Below are positions 7,343 through 64,000 of a DNA stretch of 64,000 nt, in pieces. A program made the position numbers and the translations under genes. The notes under the pieces are model-generated. The model searched no databases, was not told the origin of the DNA, and saw nothing but the letters and a program-made list of their open reading frames with translations. This DNA is from Candidatus Woesearchaeota archaeon (GTDB lineage: Archaea; Nanobdellota; Nanobdellia; Woesearchaeales; ARS49): positions 32,001 through 96,000 of the forward strand of contig JAWADY010000001.1 in assembly GCA_038891615.1 (NCBI GenBank), in the 5' to 3' direction. Within the stretch, counting starts at the first letter, position 1, and every line of letters begins with the position of its first letter.

Positions 7343-7366
7343 TATAACTTCAAATGGAGGGTAAAA

Positions 7367-9263: not shown

Positions 9264-9358
9264 TCTTTTCAAAATCTATAAAGTGTCTCACAACAGTTTT
9301 TAGTTATATCAAATTTAACGTTGATTTAATTTAATATTTGGTTAATTTCATTTTTCAT

Positions 9359-9839: not shown

Positions 9840-9988
9840 TTATTGAAAACCAAATACAAGAGTTTGAGAATATTTTCCAAAGTTAAAAAACAAAATATAA
9901 TAATATAATAGACAAATGTTATACCTTGAGGGTTCATTAAATACATTTAAATATCCCCATCCCCAACCATAATCCATATATAACCAAA

Positions 9989-10213: not shown

Positions 10214-10237
10214 TTTCTATTTGACTTATGTTCTGTT

Positions 10238-10651: not shown

Positions 10652-10711
10652 TTGTTTAAACTTTTCTTTTTTTCTTATTAAACTTTTCCATAACTTTTTT
10701 ATAGTCTTATT

Positions 10712-11299: not shown

Positions 11300-11309
11300 G
11301 CCTTGCTAA

Positions 11310-11855: not shown

Positions 11856-11897
11856 TGCTTAGATGCTTACAAATAAGTAATTCATCAAAAAAGTAAA

Positions 11898-12485: not shown

Positions 12486-12542
12486 CCAGTAAGATTTATA
12501 TACACTACAGATTAAAAAGAAGCAAAAGACGAGGTGATGTTC

Positions 12543-12722
12543 ATGCCAAAAGCACAGCCAAGCATTTCAGAGGTCCAGGACATAGAAGCTACTATTCGCG
12601 ACCTTAAAAACTGGGTATTTGTTTTTGCCAAGGAATACGACCTTCCACAAGAAGCAATCGATATGTTGCATAATAAGATAGATGAGGTTGCATCAAAGGT
12701 TGGAAGGCTTACTTGCAAGTAA
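12543..12722 (+). CDS. hypothetical small helical protein
   Basis: TTTATATA box, SD GAGGTGA at 12531-12537, ATG 12543. Confidence 0.65.
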   Translation: MPKAQPSISEVQDIEATIRDLKNWVFVFAKEYDLPQEAIDMLHNKIDEVASKVGRLTCK

Positions 12723-12749
12723 GAACTCTCTATTGTTTCCAAAGAAATT

Positions 12750-13421
12750 TTACTCCGTCTTCTTTTCTAACAACTCTTCAGCCTTCCTTTTTGCTATCCT
12801 GTGGGCAAAGTGTAGCGGTTCAGGCATCTTGTGAGGAGGTCTTATGCATTTAAGAACGATTTCAACAGCGCTCTTGATAGTTATCAGATTTCCTGGACTA
12901 ACAAAGATAGGCCTTGCGTACTGCTTTGTTTGGACCACCATCCCAACGACTTCATTCTCAAGAACTATGTCCGATCCCTTCAGCTCACCAGCCACTAAGC
13001 TTTTTGCAACGCCAATGGTTGGCTTTGCCAGCTCAACGCCAATATAAGTAGCAAGTCCTGCCTTGTTTGGATGAGCTATACCATGACCATCAACAAGAAT
13101 CACATCAGGTTCATTTTCAAGGTTATAATAGCTCTCAAGAATTAGCGGACCTTCCCTGAATGCGAGCAGAGTTGGCACATAAGGCATTGGTGCTTTCTTG
13201 ACGAGCGTTCTTTTTTCAATAACCTCTAGCTGCGGGAACGACATGACAACAGAACCACAAACAAGCTGTTCTGGCTGGCCTTTCGCAGCAGGAACTGCTG
13301 CAGCATCAAATCCTGCTATCTTTTTAATCTCGCTTATATTTATTGAGTCTTCAAGAATAACCTTATTTTTTATTTCCTCTTGCAACTTCCGCAGCCTTGC
13401 AATGCCAAAATGCGCATACAT
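12750..13421 (-). CDS. nfi: endonuclease V
   Basis: AGFD, PYVPTLLAFRE, ILVDGHGIAHP, PTIGVAK, PIFVSPG, PEPL..AH. Confidence 0.92.
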   Translation of the reverse strand: MYAHFGIARLRKLQEEIKNKVILEDSINISEIKKIAGFDAAAVPAAKGQPEQLVCGSVVMSFPQLEVIEKRTLVKKAPMPYVPTLLAFREGPLILESYYNLENEPDVILVDGHGIAHPNKAGLATYIGVELAKPTIGVAKSLVAGELKGSDIVLENEVVGMVVQTKQYARPIFVSPGNLITIKSAVEIVLKCIRPPHKMPEPLHFAHRIAKRKAEELLEKKTE

Positions 13422-37506: not shown

Positions 37507-37704
37507 CACCGAACGCTAGCGAGGAGCGTCGCAGCAAGGGAACGAAGTGACCGTTGGCGAGACGCCCGCAGCAAGTGAGGTGAAACCACCGAACGCTAGC
37601 GAGGAGTGTCGCAGCAAGGGAACGAAGTGACCGTTGGCGAGACGCCCGCAGCAAGTGAGGTGAAACCACCGAACGCTAGCGAGGAGCGTCGCAGCAAGGG
37701 AACG
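37507..37704 (+). repeat. 80-bp GC-rich tandem repeat, about 2.5 copies
   Basis: Unit CACCGAACGCTAGCGAGGAGCGTCGCAGCAAGGGAACGAAGTGACCGTTGGCGAGACGCCCGCAGCAAGTGAGGTGAAAC starts at 37507, 37587 and 37667; one C>T difference at 37607. Confidence 0.95.
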
Positions 37705-37731
37705 CTGGCAATAAAAAACAAACATCCTAAA

Positions 37732-38802
37732 ATGCCGTCAAAAAGAGGTCAGCTGACACTTTTTATAATGATTGGAGTTTTTGTTCTTATTCTGCTGGTA
37801 GCTGCAGTATACCTAAACAGCTATCTGCAGGCAAAGAAATCTGAAAAGGTCCTTTTGACAACCCTTAAGCTTGCGCATCGTCCAGAAGTAATCACTCCAA
37901 CAGTCTGTGCTGATGGCACTGAGATTGGAAGCTGTTCAAAAACAAAGCCCTTCTTTTGCAACAAACAAAAAAGGTTAGTTGCAGACTGTCAGCGTTGTGG
38001 CTGCTTTCCAGGTAGTGACTGCCTTCCTGACGGGACCTGCACCAAACCTATTTTTACAGAAGGCAACTTTACCATTTACTTTTTGCCAATAAATTATGCA
38101 CCAAACGAATCAGGCTTTCTTAGTAGGGTTGCTGTTCTAAAGGAGCTACTTCAGGCAGAGTTGGGGCTTTCTGAAAAAAATTTTGTAATCATAGACGAAT
38201 CTCTTTTTTTTCCAACCACAGAGTGTAATCAAACAGCAAGCCAACTTCATCGTTTTGTTGATGTGTGGGCACAAAAGCGCACAGGCGCTGGTCTTGGAGG
38301 TGTAAAATTTACAGCCGGCATTCCTATTTATGATTACAGGATAATTGGTTTGGACAAGAACAACCAATCAATCGAGAACTGTGGCTGTGGATACACCTTT
38401 ATGTATTCACCATTAATTTACATAGGTGGAGCGGCCTGCAGCTTACAGCAAAATGCGCTGGCACACGAGATAGGACATAGCTTTGGTCTTTGCGACGAAT
38501 ACGACACTTGTGTTTGGCAGGCAACCTCTCTTGAGCTTTCAAACGCCTATGGTCATCCTTGTTTCAATAAAATGCCTGATGAAAATAATAGCAACTGCGG
38601 AAAGCGTTGTTGTGCAGGCGAAGAAGGACATCCTTTTGGCAAGGCATGTTGTGCTGGTAAATATGCAGACAAAAAAGAAGATGGCTGGTTTAGCTACCTT
38701 GGCTCTTCTAACATCCCCCCTCCTCGAAGGTCAACAGCAGAAATGAAAGCAGTCATTTTGGAATTTTTGTGCACCAATCTTGGGGTGTGTCAAGATGTTT
38801 GA
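37732..38802 (+). CDS. Cys-rich secreted zinc metallopeptidase with class III (prepilin-like) signal peptide
   Basis: MPSKRG/QLTLFIMIGVFVLILL N-terminus; AHEIGHSFGLCDEY zincin motif; many Cys. Confidence 0.8.
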   Translation: MPSKRGQLTLFIMIGVFVLILLVAAVYLNSYLQAKKSEKVLLTTLKLAHRPEVITPTVCADGTEIGSCSKTKPFFCNKQKRLVADCQRCGCFPGSDCLPDGTCTKPIFTEGNFTIYFLPINYAPNESGFLSRVAVLKELLQAELGLSEKNFVIIDESLFFPTTECNQTASQLHRFVDVWAQKRTGAGLGGVKFTAGIPIYDYRIIGLDKNNQSIENCGCGYTFMYSPLIYIGGAACSLQQNALAHEIGHSFGLCDEYDTCVWQATSLELSNAYGHPCFNKMPDENNSNCGKRCCAGEEGHPFGKACCAGKYADKKEDGWFSYLGSSNIPPPRRSTAEMKAVILEFLCTNLGVCQDV

Positions 38803-39469
38803 AAAGGAAAGAAAAGGTTGGCAAAGGGCATGTATTACCTACTTCGGCATCATTCTTTTCTTTGTTTTGCTATCAAAAGTTGTCCTAGCAGAGTCTGAAA
38901 AGGTATTAAATTTTGACTTTATTGTTATGAAAAATGGCAGTGCACAGTTCAGCGATGCGAGGGTAAGTTTTGGTACCGCTGACCAGCCAAGCAGCCTTAG
39001 ACAGGATTGGTCTATTCGGTTTGGCAATTATTTTAGCTACATCCCACTTGTTTTTGTTCTTTATAAGGATCCGCCAGTGCTTGTTGACAGTTTGTTGGTA
39101 TCAAAAAAGCTTCCCTACACAAACAACACTGGTGTTCTTGAAGTTGCTTTCAAAAACAAAACCGTCCTGGCTTTTGATTTGGTGAAGCTTTGTGATGGAG
39201 ATAGCTTTTGTGAAGAGTTTGAAAACGCCCTCAGTTGTCCTTCTGATTGCCCTCTTGACAGGGTTGATGAGCTTTGCATTCCTGCTTTTGATGGCATCTG
39301 TGACCCAGACTGCATTGGCTCGTTAGACACTGATTGCATTGAAAAACAACTCCGCCCTTCACCGCTTACTGGCTCGACAATAATGCTTGTTTTAATTGCA
39401 GCAGTCATTTTATTTGTTATTGCTTTTCTTTTTCATTACATGAGAAGGAGGAAAGATACTTTTAAATAG
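38795..39469 (+). CDS. secreted Cys-rich protein with C-terminal membrane anchor
   Basis: Signal peptide; CDGDSFCEEFENALSCPSDC and DGICDPDC motifs; TM followed by RRRK; overlaps the upstream stop. Confidence 0.75.
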   Translation: MFEKERKGWQRACITYFGIILFFVLLSKVVLAESEKVLNFDFIVMKNGSAQFSDARVSFGTADQPSSLRQDWSIRFGNYFSYIPLVFVLYKDPPVLVDSLLVSKKLPYTNNTGVLEVAFKNKTVLAFDLVKLCDGDSFCEEFENALSCPSDCPLDRVDELCIPAFDGICDPDCIGSLDTDCIEKQLRPSPLTGSTIMLVLIAAVILFVIAFLFHYMRRRKDTFK

Positions 39470-49424: not shown

Positions 49425-49877
49425 ATGGTTAGCTTTAAGCTCGTCATTGGAACAAAGACAGGAGTTTGCGTACAAAAGGAATTGCAAGAGCCAGGTTCAA
49501 GGGTGTTTTTGGGTAAAAAGATAGGCGAAGTTGTTAAAGGGGATGAACTTGGGCTTCCTGAGCTTGCAGGCTATGAATTTCTCATTACAGGGGGTTCTGA
49601 TGACTGCGGTTTTCCAATGAGAGCGGATGTGGCTGGGGTTGGGAGAAGAAGGATTCTTGCAGTAGCTGGTGTTGGCGTGAAAAAGGTTGGAAAGGGCATA
49701 AGAATAAGAAAAACTGTTTGTGGAAACACAATTCATCCAAAGATTTCTCAAATAAACCTCAAAGTGACAAAAGAAGGAAGCAAACCACTTTTTGTGGCTG
49801 GAGCTGGTGAAACAGCAAAGGCTGAAAAGGAAAAGTCTGCAGAGGCTGAAAAGCAAGAAAAGCCTGCAAAGCAGTAA
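49425..49877 (+). CDS. rps6e: 30S ribosomal protein S6e
   Basis: GKKIGE, ITGGSD..GFPMR.D, RKTV.GN, QINLK. Confidence 0.95.
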   Translation: MVSFKLVIGTKTGVCVQKELQEPGSRVFLGKKIGEVVKGDELGLPELAGYEFLITGGSDDCGFPMRADVAGVGRRRILAVAGVGVKKVGKGIRIRKTVCGNTIHPKISQINLKVTKEGSKPLFVAGAGETAKAEKEKSAEAEKQEKPAKQ

Positions 49878-50032
49878 ATCGTAAAAGGCTGCATAGAGGC
49901 TAAGCCTTGAGCAGTCGTCAATTAGTTGCGGACATTACTCAACTTTGCTTTTCTTCTGAAAACCGCGAAAGTTTTATAAAGCATTTGAGCGTTTGCTTTT
50001 TAAAATTTAGTTCAACTGTCCGGTTAAAAAAG

Positions 50033-50974
50033 GTGGTGTTTTTGGAACAAAACGAGTTCATAAAAAAATTTGTTGAGCGCTATAAAGAAGTTGAAAAGTT
50101 TCTATCAAACCATGATGTTGATAGGGCAAAAAAAGCCTATAACGACCTTCTTGAGAGCTATAAGGATTTATCTGATTCAAACTTAAGTGAAATCCACAAG
50201 ATGATTGCATATGACAAGACGCGCAGTCTTTATGACAGACTAAATGAGATGGAAATAAACTCAAGGGAGGCCAAACTTAAGAAGACTGACTTGAAAAAAC
50301 CCCAGGCACTAAAAGCAGCCCTCATGCTAATATCAATTATCTTTGCTTTGGCAATCCTTTTTCAGCCAAAATTTGCAGGCCTTGTTACGCTTTCAAATTT
50401 TACTTTTGTAGATGTTCTCAGCGCTCAATTTGAGGGTAATGAAAATCACACTTTTATTCTCCACAAACAACCAATATCCCTTAAGGTCAGTGGATATCTA
50501 ACTTCAAACGGAAGTGCAAAACTTTACCTTTTGACCAACGGAACAAGGATGTTAGTTTATGACAGCTCGATGAATGGAAGGGAATTTGAAGAAGTCTGCA
50601 TTGAAACTTGCAGCCTTCAAGGCGTCCCAAAGAACATAACTCTTGCTTCGGAACTTGCGAATACATCATTAGTCCTAACAAAAATAAATTATGTATCTGA
50701 TGTCAGCACAAATAAAGCACCAGAGTGGAAAGCGGGTTATATCTTTAACATTCCTGTTGGCACGCCTTACAAGATATACCTTGATGATTATTTTGTAGAC
50801 CCGGATGGCGACAGGCTGGTCTATTTGGCAACACAAGCAGAAGGTTTGGAGGTTAAAGTGGAGGGCAATGTTGTTACATTGTTAGCCAAAAGTACTGGAA
50901 CAAGAGAGCTAACCTTCATCGCATCCGACCTTGTGAGTGTAACCCGTGTGCCTGTCAAGATTTTCATATCATAG
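50033..50974 (+). CDS. single-pass membrane protein with C-terminal cadherin/Ig-like domain (start uncertain; ORF open from 49907)
   Basis: Helical N-domain, one TM, extracellular sequons, NKAP.W...LDDYFVDPDGDRL.Y. Confidence 0.72.
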   Translation: MVFLEQNEFIKKFVERYKEVEKFLSNHDVDRAKKAYNDLLESYKDLSDSNLSEIHKMIAYDKTRSLYDRLNEMEINSREAKLKKTDLKKPQALKAALMLISIIFALAILFQPKFAGLVTLSNFTFVDVLSAQFEGNENHTFILHKQPISLKVSGYLTSNGSAKLYLLTNGTRMLVYDSSMNGREFEEVCIETCSLQGVPKNITLASELANTSLVLTKINYVSDVSTNKAPEWKAGYIFNIPVGTPYKIYLDDYFVDPDGDRLVYLATQAEGLEVKVEGNVVTLLAKSTGTRELTFIASDLVSVTRVPVKIFIS

Positions 50975-50988
50975 CTAAGCATTTCAAA

Positions 50989-53361
50989 ATGCAAAAAAGA
51001 GCACAGCTAACAATTTTCATAATAATAGGAGTTGTTTTGATTCTATCCGTAGGAACAATTATATACTTGGCAAGTCTGAGAAGGGCTCCTGTTTCGCGCG
51101 AGGTTGTTACACCAACACTTCCTGAAGTTCCTGTTGAAGTGCAACCGATAAAGGAGTTTGTAACAACTTGTATTGCCCAAGTTTCAGAAAATGGCTTAAG
51201 ACTCCTTGGCGAAAAAGGAGGCTATATTGATCCTGTAAAAGCGGGTCTCAAATTTAATTCTGTAGAGCCAACGGATTCCGAACTTGTTGAGCTTGTCTCT
51301 GGGGGACCTAAAATCCCGTACTGGTGGTACATGGCAGGAAAGAATGATTGCATAGGCACTTGCCCATTTTCATCCAAAAGGCCAAGCCTTTTCCGAGACG
51401 GCAGTGGCAAGAGTATTGAAGAGCAACTGGATGAATATATCAAGTCAAAGTTGAGGGATTGCACATCTGCTTTTAAAAATTTTAAAGAGCAAGGTTTTGA
51501 GATTGAAGAGCTTGGAGAGATAAAAGTTGAAACAAGTGTGGCTAAAAAAGGAGTGAATTTTTTTGTTCGGTGGCCCTTGCTTGTAAGGAAAGCAGGTGCA
51601 GAGTTCAGGCTTGATGAGTTTTTTGTCAGCCAACCTGTTGCCTTGGCAGATATATATGAGTTAGGCACAAAACTTGCAAATCTTGAGGCAGAATTTAACT
51701 ATCTGGAGAGAATGTCTAGAAACCTTATTGACAGCTTTTCAGACATCAACCCAGCTCTTCTTCCTCCAATTAGTGATGTGGATTTCTCACCAAAAATAGT
51801 AACTTGGCTCAAGAGCTCGGTTGCGAGAAAGCTGCAACAACTGCTTATGACTTATGTTCAATTCTTGCAAGTCATTGGAAGCAGGAACTATGTTTTTGTT
51901 GAAGCACCAGTTGAGGTTCGTGACAAAGCGCTTTTCAGAAAGAATTTTAATACGGATTTCGCAATTCCAATACCAGAGCATGGTCAAGAGAACAAGACGG
52001 ATTTTGGAATTGCTAACCTAAAAACCTATCCGAATATTGAAGCAAAATTCGCCTATCTTGGCTGGAAGCCGTACTTTGACCTAAACTGTAAGGGAGAACT
52101 ATGCCAACCCCAATCCGTTGGAACCACTTTTCCTTTCCAATTCAACATAAATAGATATTCTTTTGCATACGACCTAAGCTTTCCCGTTCTTGTGACTTTG
52201 ACAGATCCAGATGCCTATGGTGGCAAAGGATATACTTTTCAATTCTTTCTAGAAGGAAATTTGAGGAACAATGAGGCAATGTCAAGCGTATTTGAACCTC
52301 TTGGATTGGCTGCAGGAGTACCCTCGGCTTCCATGTTCTGTGATATTGAAAAAAGAATCCCAAATAACATAACTGTTACTGTTTTCAATGGAACTAACAA
52401 TAAGCCAATGCCAAATGTAGTTATTTATTTTGCATGTGGTGATGAGGCATGCGCCATTGGAGAAACTGGCGAAGAAGGAAGCTTTACAGGCTACTTCCCA
52501 GGTTGCTTTGGAGGTGTTGTTTCGGCTCTTGCTGAAGATAGTTATCCTGCTTATGCTCCCCTTGACACCTATGAGATAGGAGAACAATCAGTCAATTTGA
52601 CTGTTGAGCCTTATCGCTATGTAAACTTTGAAGTCAAGAAGCATCCTATACAAAAAAAGCCTGTTTATAGAGAAATCGTAAGAAGACCATTTTTTGGTGA
52701 GCAAGAAGAAATTAGAAAAGTGCTAACTGGCTTTAGATGGGAAACATTTAATCCTAGCAAAGACTCTGCATTGCCTTTGGCAGATGACGAGGAAGCCACT
52801 ATTACAATGACAAGACTAGTAGCAGAAGGCGAGGAACCATTTGTAGCTGTTGGAAGCTATGCACCAGGAATAAGGCAAGAAGATAGGTTGTCTGAAGGAC
52901 TAAGGCTTATCCCTGGAACCTATGAGGTCAAGATACAACTGCTCAAGCGGCCAGAAGAGGGTTTGATTATACCTCCAGAAGCGCACTGGGCTAGGAAAAA
53001 GAAGTTTCTTGGTGGTTCTGAATGTGTTGCGCGATGGTGTGTTCCTAGCGAAAAGATGGTTTTCAACGAAGACAATCCTCTTTTTGTCGGAGAGGCAACG
53101 CTTAATTGGACTCTAACAAAAGAGCTGCTTGACTCAGGCAACACAATCGTCTTTTATGTCCCATACCTTGACCTTGCAAGCTTATCAGATAAATGCTATC
53201 TTGGAGAGACGCCTGTTGGTCCGGAAACCAATTGGCATTGTGGACAATGCGTGGACACCTTTTGTGAACGAACGCTTGAAGATTTGAGCTATTTTAACAT
53301 GTACCAAGACCTCGTAGGAACGAATATCGATGAATTCATTCCAGATGTGGTGAAGAAATGA
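50989..53361 (+). CDS. large surface protein with class III (prepilin-like) signal peptide, paralog A
   Basis: MQKRA/QLTIFIIIGVVLIL; 790 aa; aligns by eye with 59366..61363. Confidence 0.8.
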   Translation: MQKRAQLTIFIIIGVVLILSVGTIIYLASLRRAPVSREVVTPTLPEVPVEVQPIKEFVTTCIAQVSENGLRLLGEKGGYIDPVKAGLKFNSVEPTDSELVELVSGGPKIPYWWYMAGKNDCIGTCPFSSKRPSLFRDGSGKSIEEQLDEYIKSKLRDCTSAFKNFKEQGFEIEELGEIKVETSVAKKGVNFFVRWPLLVRKAGAEFRLDEFFVSQPVALADIYELGTKLANLEAEFNYLERMSRNLIDSFSDINPALLPPISDVDFSPKIVTWLKSSVARKLQQLLMTYVQFLQVIGSRNYVFVEAPVEVRDKALFRKNFNTDFAIPIPEHGQENKTDFGIANLKTYPNIEAKFAYLGWKPYFDLNCKGELCQPQSVGTTFPFQFNINRYSFAYDLSFPVLVTLTDPDAYGGKGYTFQFFLEGNLRNNEAMSSVFEPLGLAAGVPSASMFCDIEKRIPNNITVTVFNGTNNKPMPNVVIYFACGDEACAIGETGEEGSFTGYFPGCFGGVVSALAEDSYPAYAPLDTYEIGEQSVNLTVEPYRYVNFEVKKHPIQKKPVYREIVRRPFFGEQEEIRKVLTGFRWETFNPSKDSALPLADDEEATITMTRLVAEGEEPFVAVGSYAPGIRQEDRLSEGLRLIPGTYEVKIQLLKRPEEGLIIPPEAHWARKKKFLGGSECVARWCVPSEKMVFNEDNPLFVGEATLNWTLTKELLDSGNTIVFYVPYLDLASLSDKCYLGETPVGPETNWHCGQCVDTFCERTLEDLSYFNMYQDLVGTNIDEFIPDVVKK

Positions 53362-56300
53362 AAAGAGGTTTTGCGCTAAGGGTGGTTGCGCTGCTGTTAA
53401 GCGTTTTGGTAATCAGTATTCCAGTTGCCTTTAGCCAGCAGCTGTCAGTTTCTATAAAAGGAAGTGATGGCATAGAAGGATTTGCCAGGTCAACAGACAC
53501 CCTAAGCATAAACGCAACAGCCTTCCTTCCAGAAAATCAAACTGCCATTTTAAGGATGTTTTTTGAAGAACAGCAAGAAATTATTCCTTGCACCAAAACA
53601 AATGAACCTGGAAATGTCTGGAGTTGCGCTACGACAATGTTCATAGGTCCTGGTGCTCTTTCTGACAGCCTAACTTTTGTGCTTTATAATCCAAAATTTC
53701 CTACAGATATAGAAAAGGCTTATGCAGTTGTTGAAAAGGCTTTTGTCGTCGATAGAGCAGCTCCTGCTGTTGTAAGCCTTGAGGTTGCACCCAATGTTAC
53801 AAAGGATTCTCTCCAAGTGAAATATGCAGTAGAAGACTATGCAGAGCCTGGAAACACATCTGTTTGTGTTGGGATAAAGGAGATAAGATTTTATGAAGGA
53901 AATACCATTGTTCGCACTGAACAGGGTGCGCGTGAGAAATGTAAAGCCTCCGGAACTTTCACTTATACAACCGAAATAAGTCCTATTACAGGCAAACATA
54001 CGCTATCGGCTGATGTCATTGATTTCTTTGGTCAAGCAAGCCAGAAGAGCAGTCCAAAAACCTTTACTGTAGACAATGTTGCTCCGTTTGTGATTCCTTC
54101 TAGCCTAAAAATTGTTGATTCCCAAGGAAATGTCAGAAAGCATGTAAGAACACCAACAACTTCTGCTGACCAGTGGGTTGGAACTGTTTTCGTAACAATT
54201 GAAGGAACAGACATTGAACCAAAAAGCGTTTTGGCAGACCTTTCAAAGCTAACTGGTGATGGCTTGAAAGGAGGCAGGGTTGAAGAAGGAAATGAAACAA
54301 CAACAACCTTTGCTTTTCCATTCACATTCACAATGTTTGAGCAGCCATGTACAATAACCTTTTCTGGCAAGGACAAAATAGGCAATGCTTTTGAGCAATC
54401 TGTTGGCTGCGGCCTTGTGCTTGATGAAAAGCCACCTATTTTCAAAGAAATTTATTCCTCAACTCTTGGCAAGCCAGAGTTCCGGCTTTCTGATGAGAAA
54501 GGAAGACCATTTGTTGGCTTTAACACGAGCCTTCATGTTTTTTTTGAAGAGCTCGACAACACAGGCGGTGAAGGTTCTGGAATGACTAATGGAATGGCTT
54601 ACTTAGACCTTAGTCAGATAGGCCTTCAAGGCTCTGTAAGGGCAACAAATTGCACAAAATCTGGGCAAAAAATTTGGGACTGCAGGTGGGACTTTGGAGA
54701 GCAGCTTCCAGTCCGTAGTGGAATTTTCAACATCACACTACTCAAAAGTACGAGTGACTATCTTGGCAATGGGCTTGCGGTTGAACTCACACGTGAAGTA
54801 AATTCAAATGTTGAATTTCCAACAATAGTTTCTGAAAAAGTACGACACATCCCGTCCCAGGCTGGTTATCCTGGTCCTGTAAAGGGAGACACACTTTTCT
54901 TTGAATTCAACATCTCGAGCCCACCAGAGTCTCCGCCAATAGGTATTGCAAACCTTTCAGAGCTAACAATGAGTCCAGAGACAGAAACTTTCTTATGCAG
55001 CTACAATGAAGGTGCAAAGCTCTGGCAGTGTTCTGTTTCTGCAAACATAAAACGCTCAGGTCCTTTTAATGCAACGCTGACTTTTGATTTTTTCAATCCA
55101 AACAGGCTTAGCTACACAAAGTCAATATCAGTTTTTGGCATTTCAAACGAAACAAATCCAAACCACTGGGAAAGTAGTGTTACCTGCGAGCCAATTATTG
55201 ACAGGCAAACTGCACCATTGATTCCAGGAGGGCCCAAGGTTTACTGCACTGTTAAGCTTAAGTCGCTTTCTCCGCAAGCTTCAACAGCTTCCATAGAGTT
55301 TGGAAGGTTTAATGATTGCTCTGCATCAAATGGCCTTGTGACAGCTGCAAAGCTTCTCAACAACCAACCAGGTTCAACAACGCCAATCTTTGCCCTTACG
55401 CTCGCGCCAAGCGAATACAGAACAAATGAGCTTGTGTTCACCTGCCCTCTCAAGATACTCTCTAAAATAAATCAAGAATTCACTGAAAATCCAGAGATTG
55501 AAAATGTCTCGATGCGAATCCGCTTCTTTAATCTACCACTAGGAGAGCTTTCCAAGAGCTATGATGAAAGAATAGCATCTGCCAAGAAAAGCGCATGTGG
55601 TGGAATACAAAAGGTTGTTGCAACGCTGACAAAATTAGTTAACACCTTTAACAAAATATGCAGACTCAAGCAAGCATTTACTTCTGTTGTTGTTGGTATG
55701 GCAGCGGTTTATGTTCTTGTAAAAGGAACAGGCGAAGCTCTAATGAAAAATCCATTTACAGCCCCAGCTGGGTTTAAGATTTTTGGTATTGGCGTAAACC
55801 TTTGCGGAGGAACGCTTGCAACAGAAGGGACATTTAACAGCATCTTCAACTTTTTGGACACAGCATGTGCAGTTGTGAACTGCCAGCATACAGGAAAGAC
55901 TGGTCTTGCTTCTTCATTTGGTTTTGCAGCTGCAATATCAAAAAGCTGGGGAGAGCTGTGCCAGCACGCAAGGGTATGGGAATATAGGGCTTTTAATATT
56001 CAAGGAGTTGATGAAAAAGAACTTGTGAGAATAGGATTTGACCTTAAGCCTCCAATTGCTCGTGATGTAAAAGACAGCCTTGTGTTGAGCACTGCTTGCC
56101 TTTGCCTGCCTGGAATCATTTATAACATAAACAAATACAACCAAATACAGTGCGACTATGTCAACTGCCTCAAGGATGCAAAAAAGCAAGGGCTTCCAAT
56201 ATCTTATTGCGCAAATGTGAAGTCAGAAGCTTCTTGCGCATTTGTTTTTGGAGAGTTATTCCAACTTCTTCCATTCACAGCCCTTTTCAACAGAATAGTA

Positions 56301-56537
56301 GGAATCTTAATAGACATACTTTCTAATCCTTTTACAGCCTTGCAGGTTATTGCTGCATATTATTGCGGGCCAAAGATATGCCCTGCGATGGGCGAACCCG
56401 CGCCTTCAACTCCATGCAGAACAATATACCTTGTTCAAAAAGTAACAGACGCAATCAACTCATTGGTAAACATCAAAAATGCATTTAACTTTGAAATTGG
56501 GACAAAGTCGTGTGATGAGGCATGCAAGGAGGAATAA
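53358..56537 (+). CDS. giant secreted protein: Ig-like beta domains plus Cys-rich hydrophobic helical C-terminus (B)
   Basis: 1059 aa, signal peptide, repeated (V/L)D..(A/P)P linkers and D..GN turns; ATGA overlap with the upstream gene. Confidence 0.78.
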   Translation: MKRGFALRVVALLLSVLVISIPVAFSQQLSVSIKGSDGIEGFARSTDTLSINATAFLPENQTAILRMFFEEQQEIIPCTKTNEPGNVWSCATTMFIGPGALSDSLTFVLYNPKFPTDIEKAYAVVEKAFVVDRAAPAVVSLEVAPNVTKDSLQVKYAVEDYAEPGNTSVCVGIKEIRFYEGNTIVRTEQGAREKCKASGTFTYTTEISPITGKHTLSADVIDFFGQASQKSSPKTFTVDNVAPFVIPSSLKIVDSQGNVRKHVRTPTTSADQWVGTVFVTIEGTDIEPKSVLADLSKLTGDGLKGGRVEEGNETTTTFAFPFTFTMFEQPCTITFSGKDKIGNAFEQSVGCGLVLDEKPPIFKEIYSSTLGKPEFRLSDEKGRPFVGFNTSLHVFFEELDNTGGEGSGMTNGMAYLDLSQIGLQGSVRATNCTKSGQKIWDCRWDFGEQLPVRSGIFNITLLKSTSDYLGNGLAVELTREVNSNVEFPTIVSEKVRHIPSQAGYPGPVKGDTLFFEFNISSPPESPPIGIANLSELTMSPETETFLCSYNEGAKLWQCSVSANIKRSGPFNATLTFDFFNPNRLSYTKSISVFGISNETNPNHWESSVTCEPIIDRQTAPLIPGGPKVYCTVKLKSLSPQASTASIEFGRFNDCSASNGLVTAAKLLNNQPGSTTPIFALTLAPSEYRTNELVFTCPLKILSKINQEFTENPEIENVSMRIRFFNLPLGELSKSYDERIASAKKSACGGIQKVVATLTKLVNTFNKICRLKQAFTSVVVGMAAVYVLVKGTGEALMKNPFTAPAGFKIFGIGVNLCGGTLATEGTFNSIFNFLDTACAVVNCQHTGKTGLASSFGFAAAISKSWGELCQHARVWEYRAFNIQGVDEKELVRIGFDLKPPIARDVKDSLVLSTACLCLPGIIYNINKYNQIQCDYVNCLKDAKKQGLPISYCANVKSEASCAFVFGELFQLLPFTALFNRIVGILIDILSNPFTALQVIAAYYCGPKICPAMGEPAPSTPCRTIYLVQKVTDAINSLVNIKNAFNFEIGTKSCDEACKEE

Positions 56538-56562
56538 ACAAAAAGCCCTCAAGTGATGCAAA

Positions 56563-58311
56563 ATGAAAGGAACCGTGCTTGTAGTGCTTTTAGTTGCAAT
56601 TGTATTTGTCTCAGCTTTTGTTTGGAGTGCTGCATTTGCTCAAAAAATAGAAGTTAAGCCAAGTGCAACATCAGAAGAAGCCTTACCTCCAGCAGCTGCT
56701 GGCGAGGCTGCAAAAGAACAACTAACAACTGAGCCAATGTATTTCTGGACAGGAAAAGGTTTTGATTACTGGGAACCTAGGAGGTATACTAAGGAGCAGA
56801 TTGAAAACTATTACACAACAAAAGGCATTACACCAGAACCCGTAGATGCAAGGATTGGAAGATATGGTGTTCAAAACAAAGGAAGTAGGTTGGTTGACAA
56901 GGCAACAGTAAGTCTTAAAGATGGAACACTAAGCCGTTTTGTAGAGCGTGGAACTGTTATTATAAGAGCAGATAAAAAGGTTGAAGTGCAGGACCTGAGT
57001 GGCAAAAAGCTATGGGAAGAAGAAAATGAGCAAAGCTTTAATGACAGGTTTGGCTTTGTTGGCACTGACAATGCGCCCCTCTTCATTTCTGTAATGGCAG
57101 AAAAAGGGGTTTTACTTGAGAAGCTTCCAAAGGCAACTGTTGGCAAAACAATTAGCTATGAGGACTTAGAGATATTCAGGGATTCCCAGGGTAATCTTGT
57201 GGTTGTTGAGAAGGACAGACAACTTACTGAAAGATGGAATTCTGCTGGAGAAAAGATTGAAAGAATATTTGGGCCTGAGGAAGGGCCGACTGAGGGTTAT
57301 AAATTTGTTGACAATAAAATGCAGATTTACAGCAATGGAAGATTGGCTTATACTGCTGACACAGAACTAATTAATGGAAAGAGGAGGGTAGTTTTTGTTG
57401 TAGATGGCAAGTCATACTATTTGAATGATGCCAGTGTTCTAATCGATAAAAACACAAATAAGCCAGCTGATGAAAAGACGGTTGAGAAAGTAAAAGATGT
57501 TATTGGCAAGGACAACTATGAGTTGATTGTTTCCTCAAACGCAGCAAAAGCTGGCGCTCTAACTGTTGGAGAGTATTGGAATAGCGTTTGGCGTGCTGGA
57601 GGAATTGTTGGAGTGCTAAACCAGTTTGTTCAAAACTATTATCAGTGGTCTGGAATTGGTAACCTTGGCTCGCTCTTCATCGGACAAAAGAAGCTTGCTG
57701 AGCAAAGGCAAAAGGCTGCAGAAAGTCTTTGCAAAACCATAATACTTGGTGGCACGAAGTGCTGGACATCAAAGATTTGTCAAAAAAGCTCTGACATAAC
57801 AATAGGAGGAAACACTGCAATCCTCACAACACAGAAAGGAGGGATATACATAAGGCCTGAAAAGAGCACTAGGTTTGAGTTTGTCAATGAAACAACTGGT
57901 GAGAGGATAAGCAAGAGGCTTTACAAGGTCGAGTACAGGGTTTTAAACCTGGAAAAAGAGCCAATCAGCTATAACATTGTTTTTGTTCGCAATGACAGCA
58001 TGGAGAAGAACTACTTTGCATCAGGTGACACTAATGCACAACTAAAACCAGGCGAATCAGTTGTTAGAAGTTCAACTGACCCAATAATAAATTATGCAAG
58101 TAGCGAATACATAGAAGCATGCATTGTCTTTAGCAAGGCAGTGAAAAGTAGAACAGGGAAAATGCGTCACAAACTTTGTCATCCATTCGTAGAGGTTGGC
58201 CGTGAACCAACAATTCTTGAGCTCTCACAGATTGATAAAGAAAAGGCAAGAGGGGCAGGCCCAGAAAGTCAGCCTGCTGTGCCAAAGCCAGGGACAGAGG
58301 TCTGGGATTAA
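56563..58311 (+). CDS. hypothetical secreted protein (C)
   Basis: 582 aa, signal peptide, Gly-rich amphipathic middle segment, LCKTIILGGTKCWTSKIC Cys motif. Confidence 0.75.
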   Translation: MKGTVLVVLLVAIVFVSAFVWSAAFAQKIEVKPSATSEEALPPAAAGEAAKEQLTTEPMYFWTGKGFDYWEPRRYTKEQIENYYTTKGITPEPVDARIGRYGVQNKGSRLVDKATVSLKDGTLSRFVERGTVIIRADKKVEVQDLSGKKLWEEENEQSFNDRFGFVGTDNAPLFISVMAEKGVLLEKLPKATVGKTISYEDLEIFRDSQGNLVVVEKDRQLTERWNSAGEKIERIFGPEEGPTEGYKFVDNKMQIYSNGRLAYTADTELINGKRRVVFVVDGKSYYLNDASVLIDKNTNKPADEKTVEKVKDVIGKDNYELIVSSNAAKAGALTVGEYWNSVWRAGGIVGVLNQFVQNYYQWSGIGNLGSLFIGQKKLAEQRQKAAESLCKTIILGGTKCWTSKICQKSSDITIGGNTAILTTQKGGIYIRPEKSTRFEFVNETTGERISKRLYKVEYRVLNLEKEPISYNIVFVRNDSMEKNYFASGDTNAQLKPGESVVRSSTDPIINYASSEYIEACIVFSKAVKSRTGKMRHKLCHPFVEVGREPTILELSQIDKEKARGAGPESQPAVPKPGTEVWD

Positions 58312-58380
58312 TGGAAGCAAAAAGCTTATCTTTGTCTGAATATGAGCACAAAAAGGTCATAGAAAATAGGAGGGAAATCT

Positions 58381-59247
58381 ATGGTTAAAGCAAAAAAAGT
58401 TGGTGCAAAAAAACAGCTTGCCAACACCACAAGAAAAGGCTACTTTGCAGGACTTTTTAAATGGTTTGCGAGCTCTTTTGTTGCAAAGCCGCAACAGCTT
58501 GGAATTAGCATTGTCTATGATGCAGTCTACTATACCTTGGCAATACTTGTTGGAATGCTGTTATACCTTCCTGTAAAAAAGGCATTTTTTTCTGTTCAAG
58601 CGCTAATGAGTGCTGCTGAGTCGGTTGGCCAGGCCTTACCAGAATTAACAACAACCGCAACCCAGAAACTGCTCTGGTCGCTAGGTGCTTTTGTTGTGCT
58701 TCTACCTATTGCATTGCTTTTTATATACACTGCATTTAAAGGAATGGTTTGGGCAGTCATTATTGGTAAGCCCTCGCTAGCTGCTTTTGGCAAAGGCTTC
58801 TATTGGAAGTTTTTTGCACTCAACCTTGTTTGGTTTGTGTTTTCGCTGCCACTCTTTAGCCTTTTGCTCCTTTTTTCGCGTTATGTTGCTGTGCTAGCAA
58901 ACTCTGCAACCCTGGCTTTTGTTTTATCAATAGTGCTCATGCTTTTGTTTTTGCACCTCCTCACAACAATGCACTACAGTTTTGCAAAAACCCAGCTTGT
59001 TGGAAAGTCGCTAGCAAGCATATTCACAATTGGTTTTGGCAAGATACATAGGCTTGGTCCTGCATATGTTCTTGGATTGGTTGTTTTCATCGTCTGGTCA
59101 CAAGTCTTATGGAGAGCGATAACAGCAATTGGGCTCTCGCCATCAGCGCAGTTCGCGCTGCTAATTACAATAATAATAACCCCTGTCCTTGCATGGCTAA
59201 GAATATTTGCATCAGGGCTAATAGAAAAAGAATCAAAAGGAGCATAG
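58381..59247 (+). CDS. hypothetical polytopic membrane protein (D)
   Basis: 288 aa with about 6 long hydrophobic helices. Confidence 0.78.
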   Translation: MVKAKKVGAKKQLANTTRKGYFAGLFKWFASSFVAKPQQLGISIVYDAVYYTLAILVGMLLYLPVKKAFFSVQALMSAAESVGQALPELTTTATQKLLWSLGAFVVLLPIALLFIYTAFKGMVWAVIIGKPSLAAFGKGFYWKFFALNLVWFVFSLPLFSLLLLFSRYVAVLANSATLAFVLSIVLMLLFLHLLTTMHYSFAKTQLVGKSLASIFTIGFGKIHRLGPAYVLGLVVFIVWSQVLWRAITAIGLSPSAQFALLITIIITPVLAWLRIFASGLIEKESKGA

Positions 59248-59365
59248 TTTGAAAGAAGTGATGAGGGGCAAGATATGAAAAACAAAGCCAATCTTCAAAG
59301 GATGCCAAGCGACAGGTTGGCTTTAAAAGACAAGATTAAAAAGTAAAAAGTTAAGAATTAATCAG

Positions 59366-61363
59366 ATGTCAAGAAAAAGAGGTGTTCGTGGTCAATCTCG
59401 CCTTTTAAAAGCTAAGAAGGCGCAGCTAACAGTTTTCATAATCTTAGGATTGCTTTTTGTTCTCACAGCTGTTCTCATCTTTTACCTTACAACAGCCGCT
59501 GTAAGGGTTGAGAAAGCTGTAGCAGTACCGCGAGAGCAGCGACCTGTTTATGACTTTGTCGTTGAATGCCTTAAGTCAGTTGCACATGATGCAATTGTAC
59601 AAATGGGCCAACAATCTGGCTATTTGGTTATACCAGATTCGATTGCGAGGTCTCCTGCAAGCTATGTTCCTGCTGACCCAACAGGAACTTTCAAGATTCC
59701 ATTTTGGTATTACCTCGGTGAAGATAGAAGTCCAAGTATTGGAGATATGGAAAGGGCAATTTCAAGAAATGTTGAGGATAACCTCAGAGAATGTCTTGGA
59801 AACTTCACTGCATTCAAGGATTTAAGGATTTCAGAGATAGGTAATATGAGCGCAAAAACGACAATTGCAGAAAAGAATGTTGTGGTAGAGTTGGAGTGGC
59901 CGCTTGAGCTTGCAAGTGAGAAAGGGATTGAAAGGATAACGCGCTACACTGCCTTGCTTGATGTTAGGCTTAAAGAAGCATATGACCTTGCCCAGCGATT
60001 CATGACAGCAGAAAACACGCACAAATTGCTTGAGCAGAAAACCATCGACCTCATGGCACTTAACCCAGACATTCCAATGAATGGTTTGGAATTCACCTGT
60101 GAGCAAAAGGTCTGGTTTGCAAACGATATTAAAACTATGCTTCAAACAATGCTTCGAGATAACATTCCTGTCATAAGAATAAAAAACACAGCTTACCCCC
60201 CATTTGATGAGCCGCTGGCTAACTATGAGAAATTAAAAGCATACAGCCCCCAAGACATACTTGCAAACAGAGTACCAAAGCATACCCCCGAAGATGCCTA
60301 TGAGTTCTTCAACCTTTTCTTTGAAGTTGGACAGCCACCTACAGACCTCAAAGCAACCCTGCTTTACTCTCCTGACTGGGGGATGGATTTTGATGTTCAG
60401 CCAAGTGATAATGGTGTGCTTAAATCAAATGTTGCACGAGGGGTGCAAAAATACCTTCCATTTCTTTGCATAAATCAGTACCATTTTGTTTACGACATCA
60501 TTTATCCTGTTGTGCTTCGAGTGAAGGACGAACAAGCTTTCAAGGGCGAGGGCTTTGTTTTTCAGATTGCATTTCCAGTTCTGATAAACAATAACGAAGG
60601 AAATAGAATTGCTGTCCCAATAAAAAGGTTTGAGACAAGAAAGTTCCCATTAGAGTTTTGCAAATCTCTGAGCAACCAGGTCGTTGATGTTAGAGCAATC
60701 GGCCTTGAGCAGGGCTATGTTACTGAGCTAAAAGATGTAAATATGACCTTTAGATGTTTTGACCAACTGTGTCCTTTGGGAAAGACGACTGCAGACCCAA
60801 CCGCAGGCGCAAGGCGATTATTCACCAAAATTCCCGAAGGTTGTACAAATGCCTTTATTCGCGCTGAGAAGGCAGGCTATCTTGCAAATGAGCAACAACT
60901 CACAGAAGATGTTCTTGCGCAAGACAAGGTTGTCATACCATTAACCGCTCTAAAAACAATGAAAATAAAGGTGCTAAAGCATGGCTATTATGCTCCTGAA
61001 AAAAGGTGGCTCACAGAACCAAGAGAGCTGAGGGAAGGCGAGGAGGTTTCAATCGCGATAATCGCGAGGAACAAGCAGTTCGAGCAGTTCATTGATTATC
61101 CAACCACGAAAAGTCTAGAGCTCATTCAGGAGGATTCTAACTATGACATAACGGTTATGCTGCGCCTTTTTGGAAGGATGACAGGCGGCTATGCAGCAGA
61201 GAACCTTCCAATAAGATTTTCTGACATCGATGGCAAAGAAGTTATGATAATCCATGTGTTTGAATATTTGCCGATGGCTTTTGACAGGAGCTATGACAAT
61301 GATGTGGTATCATATCTGTACCAGGGAGGATATCAGCAGATGCTGAAACCGGAGTTTGAATGA
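59366..61363 (+). CDS. large surface protein with class III (prepilin-like) signal peptide, paralog A'
   Basis: KAKKA/QLTVFIILGLLFVL; 665 aa; shares many blocks with 50989..53361. Confidence 0.8.
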   Translation: MSRKRGVRGQSRLLKAKKAQLTVFIILGLLFVLTAVLIFYLTTAAVRVEKAVAVPREQRPVYDFVVECLKSVAHDAIVQMGQQSGYLVIPDSIARSPASYVPADPTGTFKIPFWYYLGEDRSPSIGDMERAISRNVEDNLRECLGNFTAFKDLRISEIGNMSAKTTIAEKNVVVELEWPLELASEKGIERITRYTALLDVRLKEAYDLAQRFMTAENTHKLLEQKTIDLMALNPDIPMNGLEFTCEQKVWFANDIKTMLQTMLRDNIPVIRIKNTAYPPFDEPLANYEKLKAYSPQDILANRVPKHTPEDAYEFFNLFFEVGQPPTDLKATLLYSPDWGMDFDVQPSDNGVLKSNVARGVQKYLPFLCINQYHFVYDIIYPVVLRVKDEQAFKGEGFVFQIAFPVLINNNEGNRIAVPIKRFETRKFPLEFCKSLSNQVVDVRAIGLEQGYVTELKDVNMTFRCFDQLCPLGKTTADPTAGARRLFTKIPEGCTNAFIRAEKAGYLANEQQLTEDVLAQDKVVIPLTALKTMKIKVLKHGYYAPEKRWLTEPRELREGEEVSIAIIARNKQFEQFIDYPTTKSLELIQEDSNYDITVMLRLFGRMTGGYAAENLPIRFSDIDGKEVMIIHVFEYLPMAFDRSYDNDVVSYLYQGGYQQMLKPEFE

Positions 61364-64000
61364 AGATGAAAAAAAGTCTTAAGAGCATACTGCTGCTAAT
61401 GGCTTTCATCTTTTTAGCATTAGCTGTCTCAGTTTTTGGGCTAAGAATAACAGCTCCTGAAATTACCGAAATAAACACAACAAGCGTGACAATAACCTGG
61501 ACAAGTGATGTTGAATCAACAACACAAGTACTTTATGGTACTGCAAGAGATTTGAACCAGATATATGCCAACAATAGCCCTGTTACTTATCATTCTGCTC
61601 GGCTCACAAATCTTAGCCCTAATACAAAATATTATTTCTACATATTTTCTGCAAGCAAGGAACGCGCGGAATTTGCATCAGATGACAATAATGGCAAGCT
61701 TTATAACTTCACCACAGCGCCAGGAGCTGATGTTCGTGCGCCTGTCATCTCAAACATATCTGTTGCTACAGCAGAAACAACAACTGTAATCATTTGGGTG
61801 ACGGATGAGCCAGCCACAACCATGCTTTGGTATGGCACTGCGAGGGCTGAGAACCTTGCGCAAGATGGAAAGCTCACAACCGACCATCGCCTGTCAATTC
61901 CAACCGAAAAGGGCAAGGTTTACAGATTTGTGATTGGTGCTTGTGACGAGTTGAGAAATTGTGCAAACACAACAGAGCAGGGCTTTGTTGGCGGCTCTAC
62001 CGCAGCTTTCCTTTTTGTAGAAGTTCCTTCATTTGTTCAAGAAAACAGGATAGACATTGGTGGCAACACAACACCTTATGCTGCTGTTGAGGTTTTTGTA
62101 AATGGCGAGCTCAAACGTAAGGATGTAAATATTGGCGCAGACGGCAAATTCTTTTTTAGGAGCGTGCCACTCACGCTGGCAGAAAACAACATAACAATAA
62201 AAGCAATAGACAAAGCAGGCAACACAGTAAGCCAGAGCTTCACCACAACAATCGATGCAGAGCCTCCCATCATAGAGCTTGCAAATGTTTCAGAAGCAGT
62301 AACAGAGCCAAGGATTTTAATTAAAGGTAGGACAAATGAGCCTGTAACCCTACACTTTTCAAAACAAAAGGTACTTGATAAGCTTGCGCCTGTAAGGGTC
62401 TCAGGCTTGAAAGCTGAAGAACGCGCTTCTGTTGAATTGAGTTGGGAGCCAAATAAGGAAGAAGACTTGCTTGAGTATGCTGTTTATAGAAATGGCAAAA
62501 GGATTGCAGTTACAAGAACACCAAGCTATACCGATACTAATGTTGAGCCAGGAGTGAGCTACGCCTATAGGGTTTCTGCTGTTGACACGAGCTGCAACGA
62601 AGGAGGACTTTCAGATAGCGTTGAAATAACGACGGTTTATGGTCAAGAAGCAGTTGGAGAAGTGCCTGAAGTTCAATTCACTTGCACACCTCAAGAAACT
62701 ACCAAAGAACTTGGTGTTGGAGAGTTCGATATTGAGATTCCTTTAGAAGAGGGCTTGAACAGTATCAAGCTCAGATTTACTGATAGGGCAGGCAATTCGG
62801 TTGAGTTTGCAAAGGGCGTTATAGTTGATACGCAACCTCCACAAATTCTTGAGACAAACATTGATAGGCTAAGCCCAAGCTACTCTCCAGATGTTTTAAT
62901 AATCGGAAAGGTGAGCGAAAATGCAACTGTTTTTGTTGAAGTCCAAGGAGAAAAATATTTTGACCTCACTGATGATAAGGGGAATTTCAGAATCCCAGTT
63001 ACTCTTAAACGCGATGCAAGCATAAAGATCACCGAGAAAAGGGCAGAAGCAGAAACGGGTGAAGGTTGGAAAAACCACATAAAGGTCCAAGCGATTGACA
63101 TTGCTGGTCAGAAGTCTGATTTTGTTGAAGGGGATGTGATTTATGCCATTTGTGGCTTTGGCAGTTGGTTCAAGGTTGAGTTAAGCAAGCCAATGCCAAG
63201 TTCATTGACACCAAGATTGATGCTTGAGGGCCAACAGCAGCTTGGGTTTGGAGTCAACATAACTTATAGAGGAGGTTATGATGCAGTTATCAAGAGCATA
63301 AATGTCAGGCCAGCCACACTCAGTCCCGCGGCTTCTGAAAACTATGACCAAGGATGGTATCGTGCGGACATAAACCCTTCTCCAAGAGGAAAGAAGAGCT
63401 ATGTAGGTTATCTTAGGTTGCTATTCACAGGGGTTCCAGACGTTCCAGGCAAGACATTCCTGGAGCGGGAAGAAGTTCTTTCAAATCACAGGATTGGAAA
63501 GTGTAAAACAATTCCTCCTGGCACTGGATGTTTTAAAGGACTTCTCGAGTTAGAAATAAAAGCCCAAGAGCTCATACCGATAAAGCCGTTTACCCAAGTA
63601 ACAGGCCTCCCAACAGAGATCCAACCATCTGACATAACACAAAAGGTATGCATAGACATAGAATCAATGATTGATAGGCGTGTGAAGCCTCTTGCGCCGC
63701 GAGGTCTGCTGAAAAGTAGCATAAGCCTAATGGACGGAATATTAAAAGGAATTGATTCTGTGCTTAAGCCTGTCAGAACAATAGGGCAATTAACCTTGGG
63801 AGGCTGCTTTGCAACAAACCTGCTAAATTGGGCATTCTTTGTGCAGGAGCGCTTTGCTTGCACTCCTTCTCACGATTTGTTTGAAACAATTAAAAGCTTT
63901 TTGGGCATTTCCGAATTCAAGGATGTTGCAGAAATAGGGCTATGCAATGTCCATCCAAGGCTCAAAGACAATCCAACCGCAAAGGATGCCTGCAACAGGT
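61360..64000 (+). CDS. giant secreted FN3/Ig-domain protein (B'), 3'-truncated by the window edge; not in the ORF track
   Basis: Open frame from ATG 61360 to the window end (>880 aa): signal MKMKKSLKSILLLMAFIF, FN3 motifs (SVTITWT...LTNLSPNTKYYF; LSWEP...YAVYRNG...YAYRVSAVD), D.AGN Ig repeats; ATGA overlap. Confidence 0.82.
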   Translation, partial: MKMKKSLKSILLLMAFIFLALAVSVFGLRITAPEITEINTTSVTITWTSDVESTTQVLYGTARDLNQIYANNSPVTYHSARLTNLSPNTKYYFYIFSASKERAEFASDDNNGKLYNFTTAPGADVRAPVISNISVATAETTTVIIWVTDEPATTMLWYGTARAENLAQDGKLTTDHRLSIPTEKGKVYRFVIGACDELRNCANTTEQGFVGGSTAAFLFVEVPSFVQENRIDIGGNTTPYAAVEVFVNGELKRKDVNIGADGKFFFRSVPLTLAENNITIKAIDKAGNTVSQSFTTTIDAEPPIIELANVSEAVTEPRILIKGRTNEPVTLHFSKQKVLDKLAPVRVSGLKAEERASVELSWEPNKEEDLLEYAVYRNGKRIAVTRTPSYTDTNVEPGVSYAYRVSAVDTSCNEGGLSDSVEITTVYGQEAVGEVPEVQFTCTPQETTKELGVGEFDIEIPLEEGLNSIKLRFTDRAGNSVEFAKGVIVDTQPPQILETNIDRLSPSYSPDVLIIGKVSENATVFVEVQGEKYFDLTDDKGNFRIPVTLKRDASIKITEKRAEAETGEGWKNHIKVQAIDIAGQKSDFVEGDVIYAICGFGSWFKVELSKPMPSSLTPRLMLEGQQQLGFGVNITYRGGYDAVIKSINVRPATLSPAASENYDQGWYRADINPSPRGKKSYVGYLRLLFTGVPDVPGKTFLEREEVLSNHRIGKCKTIPPGTGCFKGLLELEIKAQELIPIKPFTQVTGLPTEIQPSDITQKVCIDIESMIDRRVKPLAPRGLLKSSISLMDGILKGIDSVLKPVRTIGQLTLGGCFATNLLNWAFFVQERFACTPSHDLFETIKSFLGISEFKDVAEIGLCNVHPRLKDNPTAKDACNR

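Follow-up and report, generated by a model that had tools for sequence, protein, structure and literature searches.

Few uncultivated archaea are as widespread as those of the Woesearchaeota type, which are thought to depend on other cells. We know of no description of how they touch those cells. Here we analysed a stretch of 64,000 nucleotides (the window, C1:32001-96000) from a Candidatus Woesearchaeota genome of 661,270 bp, which consists of 5 contigs and is 97.9% complete. Its close protein relatives are named Candidatus Woesearchaeota or Nanoarchaeota, and its DNA turned up in metagenomes from hot springs (6 runs, 2 studies), possibly the very source of the genome. The list of open reading frames (ORFs) showed seven genes on the + strand downstream of the gene for ribosomal protein S6e (rpS6e), which we call g1, A, B, C, D, A' and B'. 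Two of them, A and A', encode large paralogous proteins with a class III (prepilin-type) signal, and each is directly followed by the gene of a giant secreted protein. The features, in window coordinates and with lengths in amino acids (aa), are:

49425-49877, + strand: S6e, ribosomal protein (Pfam, E 1.6e-30)
49907-50974, + strand: g1, 355 aa, single-pass membrane protein (ORF list, hydropathy)
50989-53361, + strand: A, 790 aa, class III (prepilin-type) signal (ORF list, motif, model)
53358-56537, + strand: B, 1059 aa, secreted, Sec-type signal (ORF list, family alignment, model)
56563-58311, + strand: C, 582 aa, secreted (ORF list, alignment of 16)
58381-59247, + strand: D, 288 aa, polytopic membrane protein (ORF list, hydropathy)
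59366-61363, + strand: A', 665 aa, paralog of A, class III signal (ORF list, alignment, tree)
61360-64000 (continues), + strand: B', giant secreted protein, open at the window end (ORF list, whole genome)

The initial annotation of this DNA had described seven co-oriented, closely spaced genes in an operon of more than 14 kb. The orientation and spacing were borne out, with intergenic gaps of 14-118 nt within the cluster. The cluster is real, and its size had been set too low: B' continues ~3.6 kb beyond the window end to a full length of 2086 aa (C1:93360-99620), so the cluster spans ~17.7 kb, or 2.7% of the 661-kb genome. The ATGA overlaps of stop and start codons that couple A to B (53358-53361) and A' to B' (61360-61363) were read directly in the DNA, as annotated. 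Hydropathy analysis gave a single N-terminal hydrophobic segment each in A, A', B, B' and C, and the cysteine counts were 16 for A, 31 for B and 48 for B'. There was no compositional break in the base composition of the window, and the scan for promoters and terminators returned chance level only.

None of the cluster proteins falls into a characterised family. Pfam and NCBIfam gave no family for A, C, D and A', and no enzyme family for any protein of the cluster. These library scans agreed with the earlier statement that the cluster holds no enzyme motif. Pfam domains were also absent from 42 relatives of A. In the literature covered, which did not include Figure S10 of PMC13705601 (DPANN type IV filament loci), no published description of the A family or of the cluster was found.

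A and A' are ancient paralogs. They share 25% identity over 532 columns (E 2e-35), and all four motif pairs quoted in support of their paralogy can be seen in this alignment. In a tree of 97 family members, 24/24 A' orthologs formed one clade with a support of 1.0 on a long branch, which indicates that the duplication is old.

The N-termini of the two proteins read MQKRA/QLTIFIIIG in A and KAKKA/QLTVFIILG in A' (the slash stands before position +1). The start with K-R-A-Q or K-K-A-Q and a following hydrophobic helix had been noted before, and it turned out to be a strictly conserved pattern in the 97 aligned A and A' sequences. Their consensus is K-[KR]-[GAS]/Q-[IV]-[TS]-[IV]-F-[IM]-I-x-G, with K/R at position -2 in 96/97, G/A/S at -1 in 96/97, Q at +1 in 97/97, T/S at +3 in 94/97, F at +5 in 95/97, G at +9 in 91/97 and Y at +21 in 84/97. 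The leader has a median length of 7 aa. The N-terminus is hydrophobic in 97/97 sequences, and a second hydrophobic segment occurs in 1/97. Judged by sequence, A and A' thus carry the short basic leader, the [KR][GA] and the hydrophobic stretch of a predicted class III signal. The N-terminus is constrained far beyond what a plain membrane anchor needs, which fits the class III pattern. When the genome was scanned for [KR][GA]Q followed by a hydrophobic stretch, 10 ORFs were found, and a Q-L-T motif was shared by 4 of these 10: A, A', a 395-aa A-like protein on contig 2, and a protein of ~380-398 aa with a HEIGH motif (window 37606-38802).

The structure of A was modelled from the 97-sequence alignment, with a mean predicted local distance difference test (pLDDT) score of 90.6 and a predicted template modelling (pTM) score of 0.68. 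The model contains a helix (2-32), a low-confidence coil linker (33-48) and an alpha/beta domain of ~400 aa (49 to ~445) that opens with a helix at 49-75. Beyond this N-domain, a transthyretin/CarboxypepD_reg-like sandwich (454-543) is followed by more sandwiches to ~735 and by C-terminal helices. In VIA-align, the 454-543 sandwich matched both 1qmu_A (Z 11.5, root-mean-square deviation (rmsd) 1.9 over 82 residues) and SlaB 8qox_B (Z 10.1, rmsd 2.1 over 84 residues). Foldseek of the whole model against the PDB returned sortase pilins, SlaB and adhesins with TM-scores <= 0.13, and the comparison with BFVD returned phage fibre/anchor-like sandwich arrays (E down to 1.6e-7, TM-scores <= 0.14). 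All these searches, in PDB, VIA-align and BFVD and with the whole model, matched transthyretin/CnaB-like beta-sandwiches only, so the N-domain (49-445), which is the best-conserved part of A, was barely probed by them. At the sequence level, the A profile had no meaningful match among PDB sequences (the top one was a designed protein, E 0.0079).

B is composed of a Sec-type signal, a stalk of immunoglobulin (Ig)-like repeats and a C-terminal disulfide-rich, all-helical domain of 370 aa (690-1059). The only Pfam match of B was Big_13, which with E 0.012 missed the cut-off. In B', an N-terminal part with fn3, Big_13 and Pur_ac_phosph_N precedes a Cys-rich region. The two proteins were not recognisable as paralogs by BLASTP. 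When the profile of the B C-terminal domain was compared with that of B' residues 760-1500, they matched with 80.7% probability (E 1.3e-5), and the match was centred on a C-x-C-[LI]-P...L-x-K-[WY]-[KR]-Q-I motif. By profile, then, B and B' share only the core of a Cys-rich domain. The duplicated pair proposed in the initial annotation is clear for A and A', and for B and B' it comes down to this one domain.

To describe the B C-terminal domain, its 370 residues were modelled from 52 sequences (pLDDT 76.7, pTM 0.65). The model is all-helical with one helix of 49 residues, and 14 Cys are invariant in the family. Foldseek gave 0 matches at E <= 0.001 for it, VIA-align gave generic helical hairpins only (best Z 8.4), and the comparison with named Atlas clusters gave no usable match. 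The domain profile showed no relation to the adhesin of the pilus locus described below or to the C family. Four hydrophobic stretches of the domain are conserved in the family (770-788, 906-924, 959-977 and 987-1005), with mean hydropathies of 1.08-1.44, below the transmembrane threshold. In PHROGs, B and B' had Ig and fn3 matches only.

The remaining three genes encode smaller proteins. g1 has an N-terminal helical cytoplasmic part, a transmembrane segment at ~134-152 and a beta-rich, possibly Ig-like ectodomain; its start is uncertain, being either TTG 49907 or the in-frame GTG 50033, the position given in the initial annotation. Pfam at E <= 0.1 found only DUF5344, Big_9 and CTD12 in g1, all below the cut-off. 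The best of them was Big_9 (E 0.047) and no cadherin family was among them, so the earlier label of g1 as cadherin-like found no support. In C, the middle varies and the C-terminal ~230 aa form a conserved domain in which 5 Cys are invariant (16 aligned), and D has ~6-7 hydrophobic segments and no Cys, with 0/16 members of its family matching Pfam. Homologs of g1 were found as 24 ORFs in 23/80 related loci, nearly all 5' of A, and homologs of C and of D lie between B and A' in 16 loci each.

The arrangement of the cluster is conserved among relatives. A search of species-representative genomes gave 288 relatives of A, of which the best 80 loci were examined. B stands directly after A in 69/71 loci having at least 1.5 kb downstream. 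The two exceptions are L037, where one ORF read through a masked N run holds both A and B, and L031, where B was undetectable. Overlaps of 1-8 nt were found in 40/71 A-B pairs and in 20/27 A'-B' pairs. Among the 39 loci with at least 9.5 kb downstream, A' and B' were both present in 25, A' alone in 5 more, and neither in 9 (E 1e-5). S6e lies upstream in 14/80 loci. Such recurrence in related genomes places the arrangement far beyond chance. The apparent fusions of A with B (L037) and of A' with B' (L019) were rejected as artefacts of read-through across masked N runs.

The family itself is nearly ubiquitous in this group. The A profile was present in 148/151 genomes of the order, a tally that includes the unpublished G110 and G119, and in 192/201 genomes sampled from the phylum, which all belong to the same order or class; most of them have several copies. 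Of 1.84 billion cluster representatives, 9378 matched the A profile with E <= 0.001 and 1992 with E <= 1e-30, and the metagenomic relatives of the family number in the thousands. In five loci (L023, L025, L026, L058, L064), an extra B-like and then an A-like gene lie between g1 and A. Such a pair would be a third module with the gene order reversed.

Genes related to type IV filaments were also found in the genome. An A24 prepilin peptidase (PF01478, E 3.5e-17, above the cut-off) containing GGGDVKLL is encoded at C1:230751-231077 on the - strand. This peptidase occurs in 197/201 sampled genomes and in 189/192 of those having A. The initial annotation was to be given up if relatives lacked the A-B synteny, if the genome lacked a prepilin peptidase or if the proteins belonged to unrelated characterised families; the synteny and the peptidase were both found, and no characterised family was. 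After the gene for the sole clear T2SSE ATPase of the genome (765 aa) comes an ORF of 729 aa that shows ~7 hydrophobic segments and matches no Pfam family; it may be a candidate platform protein, perhaps a very divergent one. Elsewhere on contig 2, a gene of the A type overlaps the start of an adhesin gene. These four genes are:

L093 (G000:C2:98001-114000), 5258-7447 and 7476-9773, - strand: 729-aa ORF and T2SSE ATPase (hydropathy, profile search)
L092 (G000:C2:58001-74000), 6687-7874 and 7868-13348: 395-aa A-like protein and 1826-aa adhesin (overlapping ORFs)

The 395-aa protein (KKGQLTVAIILG) matches residues 2-251 of A at E 1.1e-14. The adhesin contains TSP3 repeats and a C-terminal transmembrane segment, and pilin-like genes lie downstream of it. 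Together with the two pairs of the cluster, this makes three A-type genes each coupled to a giant exported protein, one of them among pilins. Two Ig/Cys-rich proteins of 510 and 753 aa are encoded on the 5' side of the contig-2 A-like gene; they are paralogs whose C-terminal halves are almost identical.

A further gene with the A-like N-terminal motif (SKRGQLTLFIMIG) lies within the window at 37606-38802 (+). It encodes the protein of ~380-398 aa with the HEIGH zinc-metalloprotease motif, many Cys and no Pfam match, and its end overlaps a gene at 38780-39469 (+) for a 229-aa Cys-rich protein with a signal and a C-terminal transmembrane segment. These two may form another pair of a class III protein and a coupled partner.

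Taken together, we consider it on balance probable, by a modest degree, that the two anciently duplicated modules encode a cell-surface complex in which A and A', with their class III signals, hold the giant B and B', likely for adhesion or contact. A and A' would be exported with the class III signal, and the A24 peptidase would probably cleave them behind the G/A of K-[KR]-[GA]/Q. The N-terminal hydrophobic helix would then retain A, either within the membrane or as part of a short base resembling a type IV filament, much as the Sulfolobus bindosome retains its sugar-binding proteins. The overlapping stop and start codons may set a fixed A:B (and A':B') ratio. B, which is predicted to be exported by Sec and has no clear membrane anchor of its own, would most likely be tethered to the cell by A, and g1, C and D could be accessory or assembly parts. 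The likely role of the cluster would be adhesion to, or contact with, another cell or surface. The stoichiometric complex of the initial annotation was an overstatement, since its whole basis is the coupling and the synteny.

Several points weigh against this reading. The cluster is known here from its genes alone. The A24 peptidase is near-universal, so its co-occurrence with A discriminates nothing. The filament machinery that had been expected is there in part: the T2SSE ATPase is in the genome, but the platform family PF00482 (T2SSF) was not detected in it at E <= 1, which a divergent 729-aa platform would explain. A secretion-ATPase homolog lies near the cluster in 5/80 loci, on the opposite strand, and no peptidase or platform homolog was near it in the 80 loci. 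Hydropathy of at least 2.0 after residue 60 was reached in 18/52 B orthologs (versus 5/84 B' relatives), so some B proteins could anchor themselves. No fused longer form of A was seen among 8000 candidates, which is weak evidence. In the model of A, the linker 33-48 separates the N-terminal helix from the ectodomain, and A would in this respect be unlike a canonical pilin, in which the alpha-1 helix runs on without a break and packs against a sheet. Finally, the near-universal, syntenic conservation by rpS6e fits a housekeeping part of the envelope at least as well as a host-specific adhesin. The flexible linker, the missing linkage to filament genes in 75/80 loci and this conservation also speak for an envelope complex independent of filaments, in which the A N-terminus would be an uncleaved signal-anchor (type II) and the cluster a housekeeping scaffold, for example one spanning or organising the surface layer (S-layer), with no role in filaments or host contact. 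The resemblance of the A beta-sandwich to the S-layer stalk protein SlaB, among many others, points the same way. As in the cluster, Sulfolobus SlaA/SlaB (PDB 8qox) combines a membrane-anchored stalk protein with an adjacently encoded, large Ig-rich outer protein. However, the anchor of SlaB is C-terminal, and A matches it in a single generic transthyretin-like domain. Moreover, the near-invariant Q(+1), K/R(-2) and G/A/S(-1) and the short leader are unneeded for a simple anchor, an A-like gene stands within a pilin locus, and the window encodes a canonical S-layer protein in another place (PF05124, E 1.4e-17). We give this filament-independent scaffold a real but minor chance of being right.

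Other explanations fared less well. B could act on the membrane of a host, with the stalk presenting a helical domain that grips or inserts into the envelope of the other cell as the first step of DPANN intercellular bridges. The family-conserved hydrophobic stretches of the helical domain, its lack of a solved fold counterpart in our searches and the large share of the genome taken by the cluster would agree with such a role, but the hydropathy peaks do not reach the usual transmembrane threshold and could be buried core, the pLDDT of the model is only 76.7, no likeness to a pore-former or fusogen was seen (generic helical hairpins were the best matches, Z <= 8.4), and there is no known host. 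Engagement of a host membrane by B is thus quite unlikely. It is very unlikely that A and A' belong to a bindosome-like system for scavenging nutrients, in which they would be anchored through the class III signal and, as binding proteins or hydrolases, capture substrates to be taken up. According to the parts of a survey covered here (PMC13705601), such signals are widespread among the large binding proteins of archaea, and in the window the same N-terminal motif is carried by the HEIGH protein; however, neither a substrate-binding nor an enzyme family turned up in A, A', B or B', there is no ABC (ATP-binding cassette) transporter gene within the cluster, and the partner proteins are giant Ig-repeat proteins. 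Enzymes that cut cell walls were likewise not seen among the 40 of 52 B orthologs scanned, 4 of which matched Big_3_3 only, or in the precomputed Pfam lists for 84 B' relatives. An origin from a virus or mobile element, for example as fibre or spike genes of a provirus, is extremely improbable and close to refuted. The sandwich array of A resembles the phage proteins in BFVD, and B and B' match PHROGs, though only via Ig/fn3. Against this stand the constant chromosomal context after rpS6e, the presence of A in nearly all sampled genomes, the unbroken base composition and the lack of any phage-specific family.

By analogy, the nearest precedent for the cluster seems to be the bindosome principle. 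The 2026 survey, in the parts covered here, reported class III signals on many archaeal substrate-binding proteins and proposed that filament machinery displays them (PMC13705601). As such bindosome-type class III proteins are known, the premise of the initial annotation that these signals normally mark only small pilins was overstated. Like A and A', the proteins of the bindosome (GlcS, AraS and TreS of Sulfolobales, with BasABC/BasEF, and a wider SPIII set) combine a large functional ectoprotein with an N-terminus of the prepilin type and a hydrophobic helix, as far as that part of the survey goes (PMC13705601). A and A' differ from them in having neither a substrate-binding domain nor an ABC transporter neighbour, in being each coupled to a giant Ig-repeat partner, and in belonging to a unit that is duplicated and comes with C, D and g1. 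Transporter or solute-binding families were found neither by Pfam and NCBIfam in the seven cluster genes and S6e nor by Pfam in the 258-aa gene after B'.

Pilus systems offer further likenesses. The Epd pili of Methanococcus maripaludis are reportedly built from pilins processed by EppA with Gln at +1. Archaeal type IV filaments of 'system 1' are the type reported for Nanobdellati in the same part of the survey (PMC13705601). Epd/'system 1' and the cluster both have a [KR]G/Q-type signal, and adhesin-like proteins occur in 'system 1' loci. In contrast to A and A' with their 665-790 aa (at least 5 domains in A), Epd pilins are small; the A motif is Q-x-T-x-F (F at +5) and that of Epd is Q-x-S-x-E, and the cluster is without an ATPase or platform gene. 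PilB of Streptococcus sanguinis follows the same concept of a pilin-type N-terminus bearing a large adhesive module, as described in the part of PMC8179133 covered here. PilB is bacterial and consists of an intact pilin module and then vWA (same part of PMC8179133), whereas A has no recognisable pilin head and would function via a separate partner. Compared with these systems, what is new in the cluster is the type of cargo, the giant partner coupled to it, the duplication of the architecture and a helical domain without a fold match. Among the families specific to DPANN, many are located in the membrane or outside the cell and lack function predictions (Castelle et al. 2021, PMC8204110, in part), and a description of the cluster was not found in the portion of that paper covered.

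On this reading, the cluster would link large surface proteins with prepilin export. The recent idea that type IV filament machinery in archaea displays cargo other than pilins would then reach beyond solute-binding proteins to giant complexes of an adhesin-like kind, and the cluster offers concrete targets in A, the B helical domain and the Q-x-T-x-F signal. A bolder version, which we regard as doubtful, is that the cluster encodes a core cell-contact organelle of Nanoarchaeia (Woesearchaeota and Pacearchaeota), with A docking B and the distal helical domain engaging or inserting into the host envelope. If true, it would be the long-sought machine for attachment and bridge initiation of the largest DPANN lineage.

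Two neighbouring genes were noted in addition. The S_layer_C-family protein mentioned above (798 aa, window 28705-31101, +), which does not belong to the cluster, probably forms the S-layer of the organism. The gene right after B' (258 aa, G000:C1:99667-100443) encodes a protein with a Fis-type HTH_8 (E 5.2e-15) and is a possible regulator.

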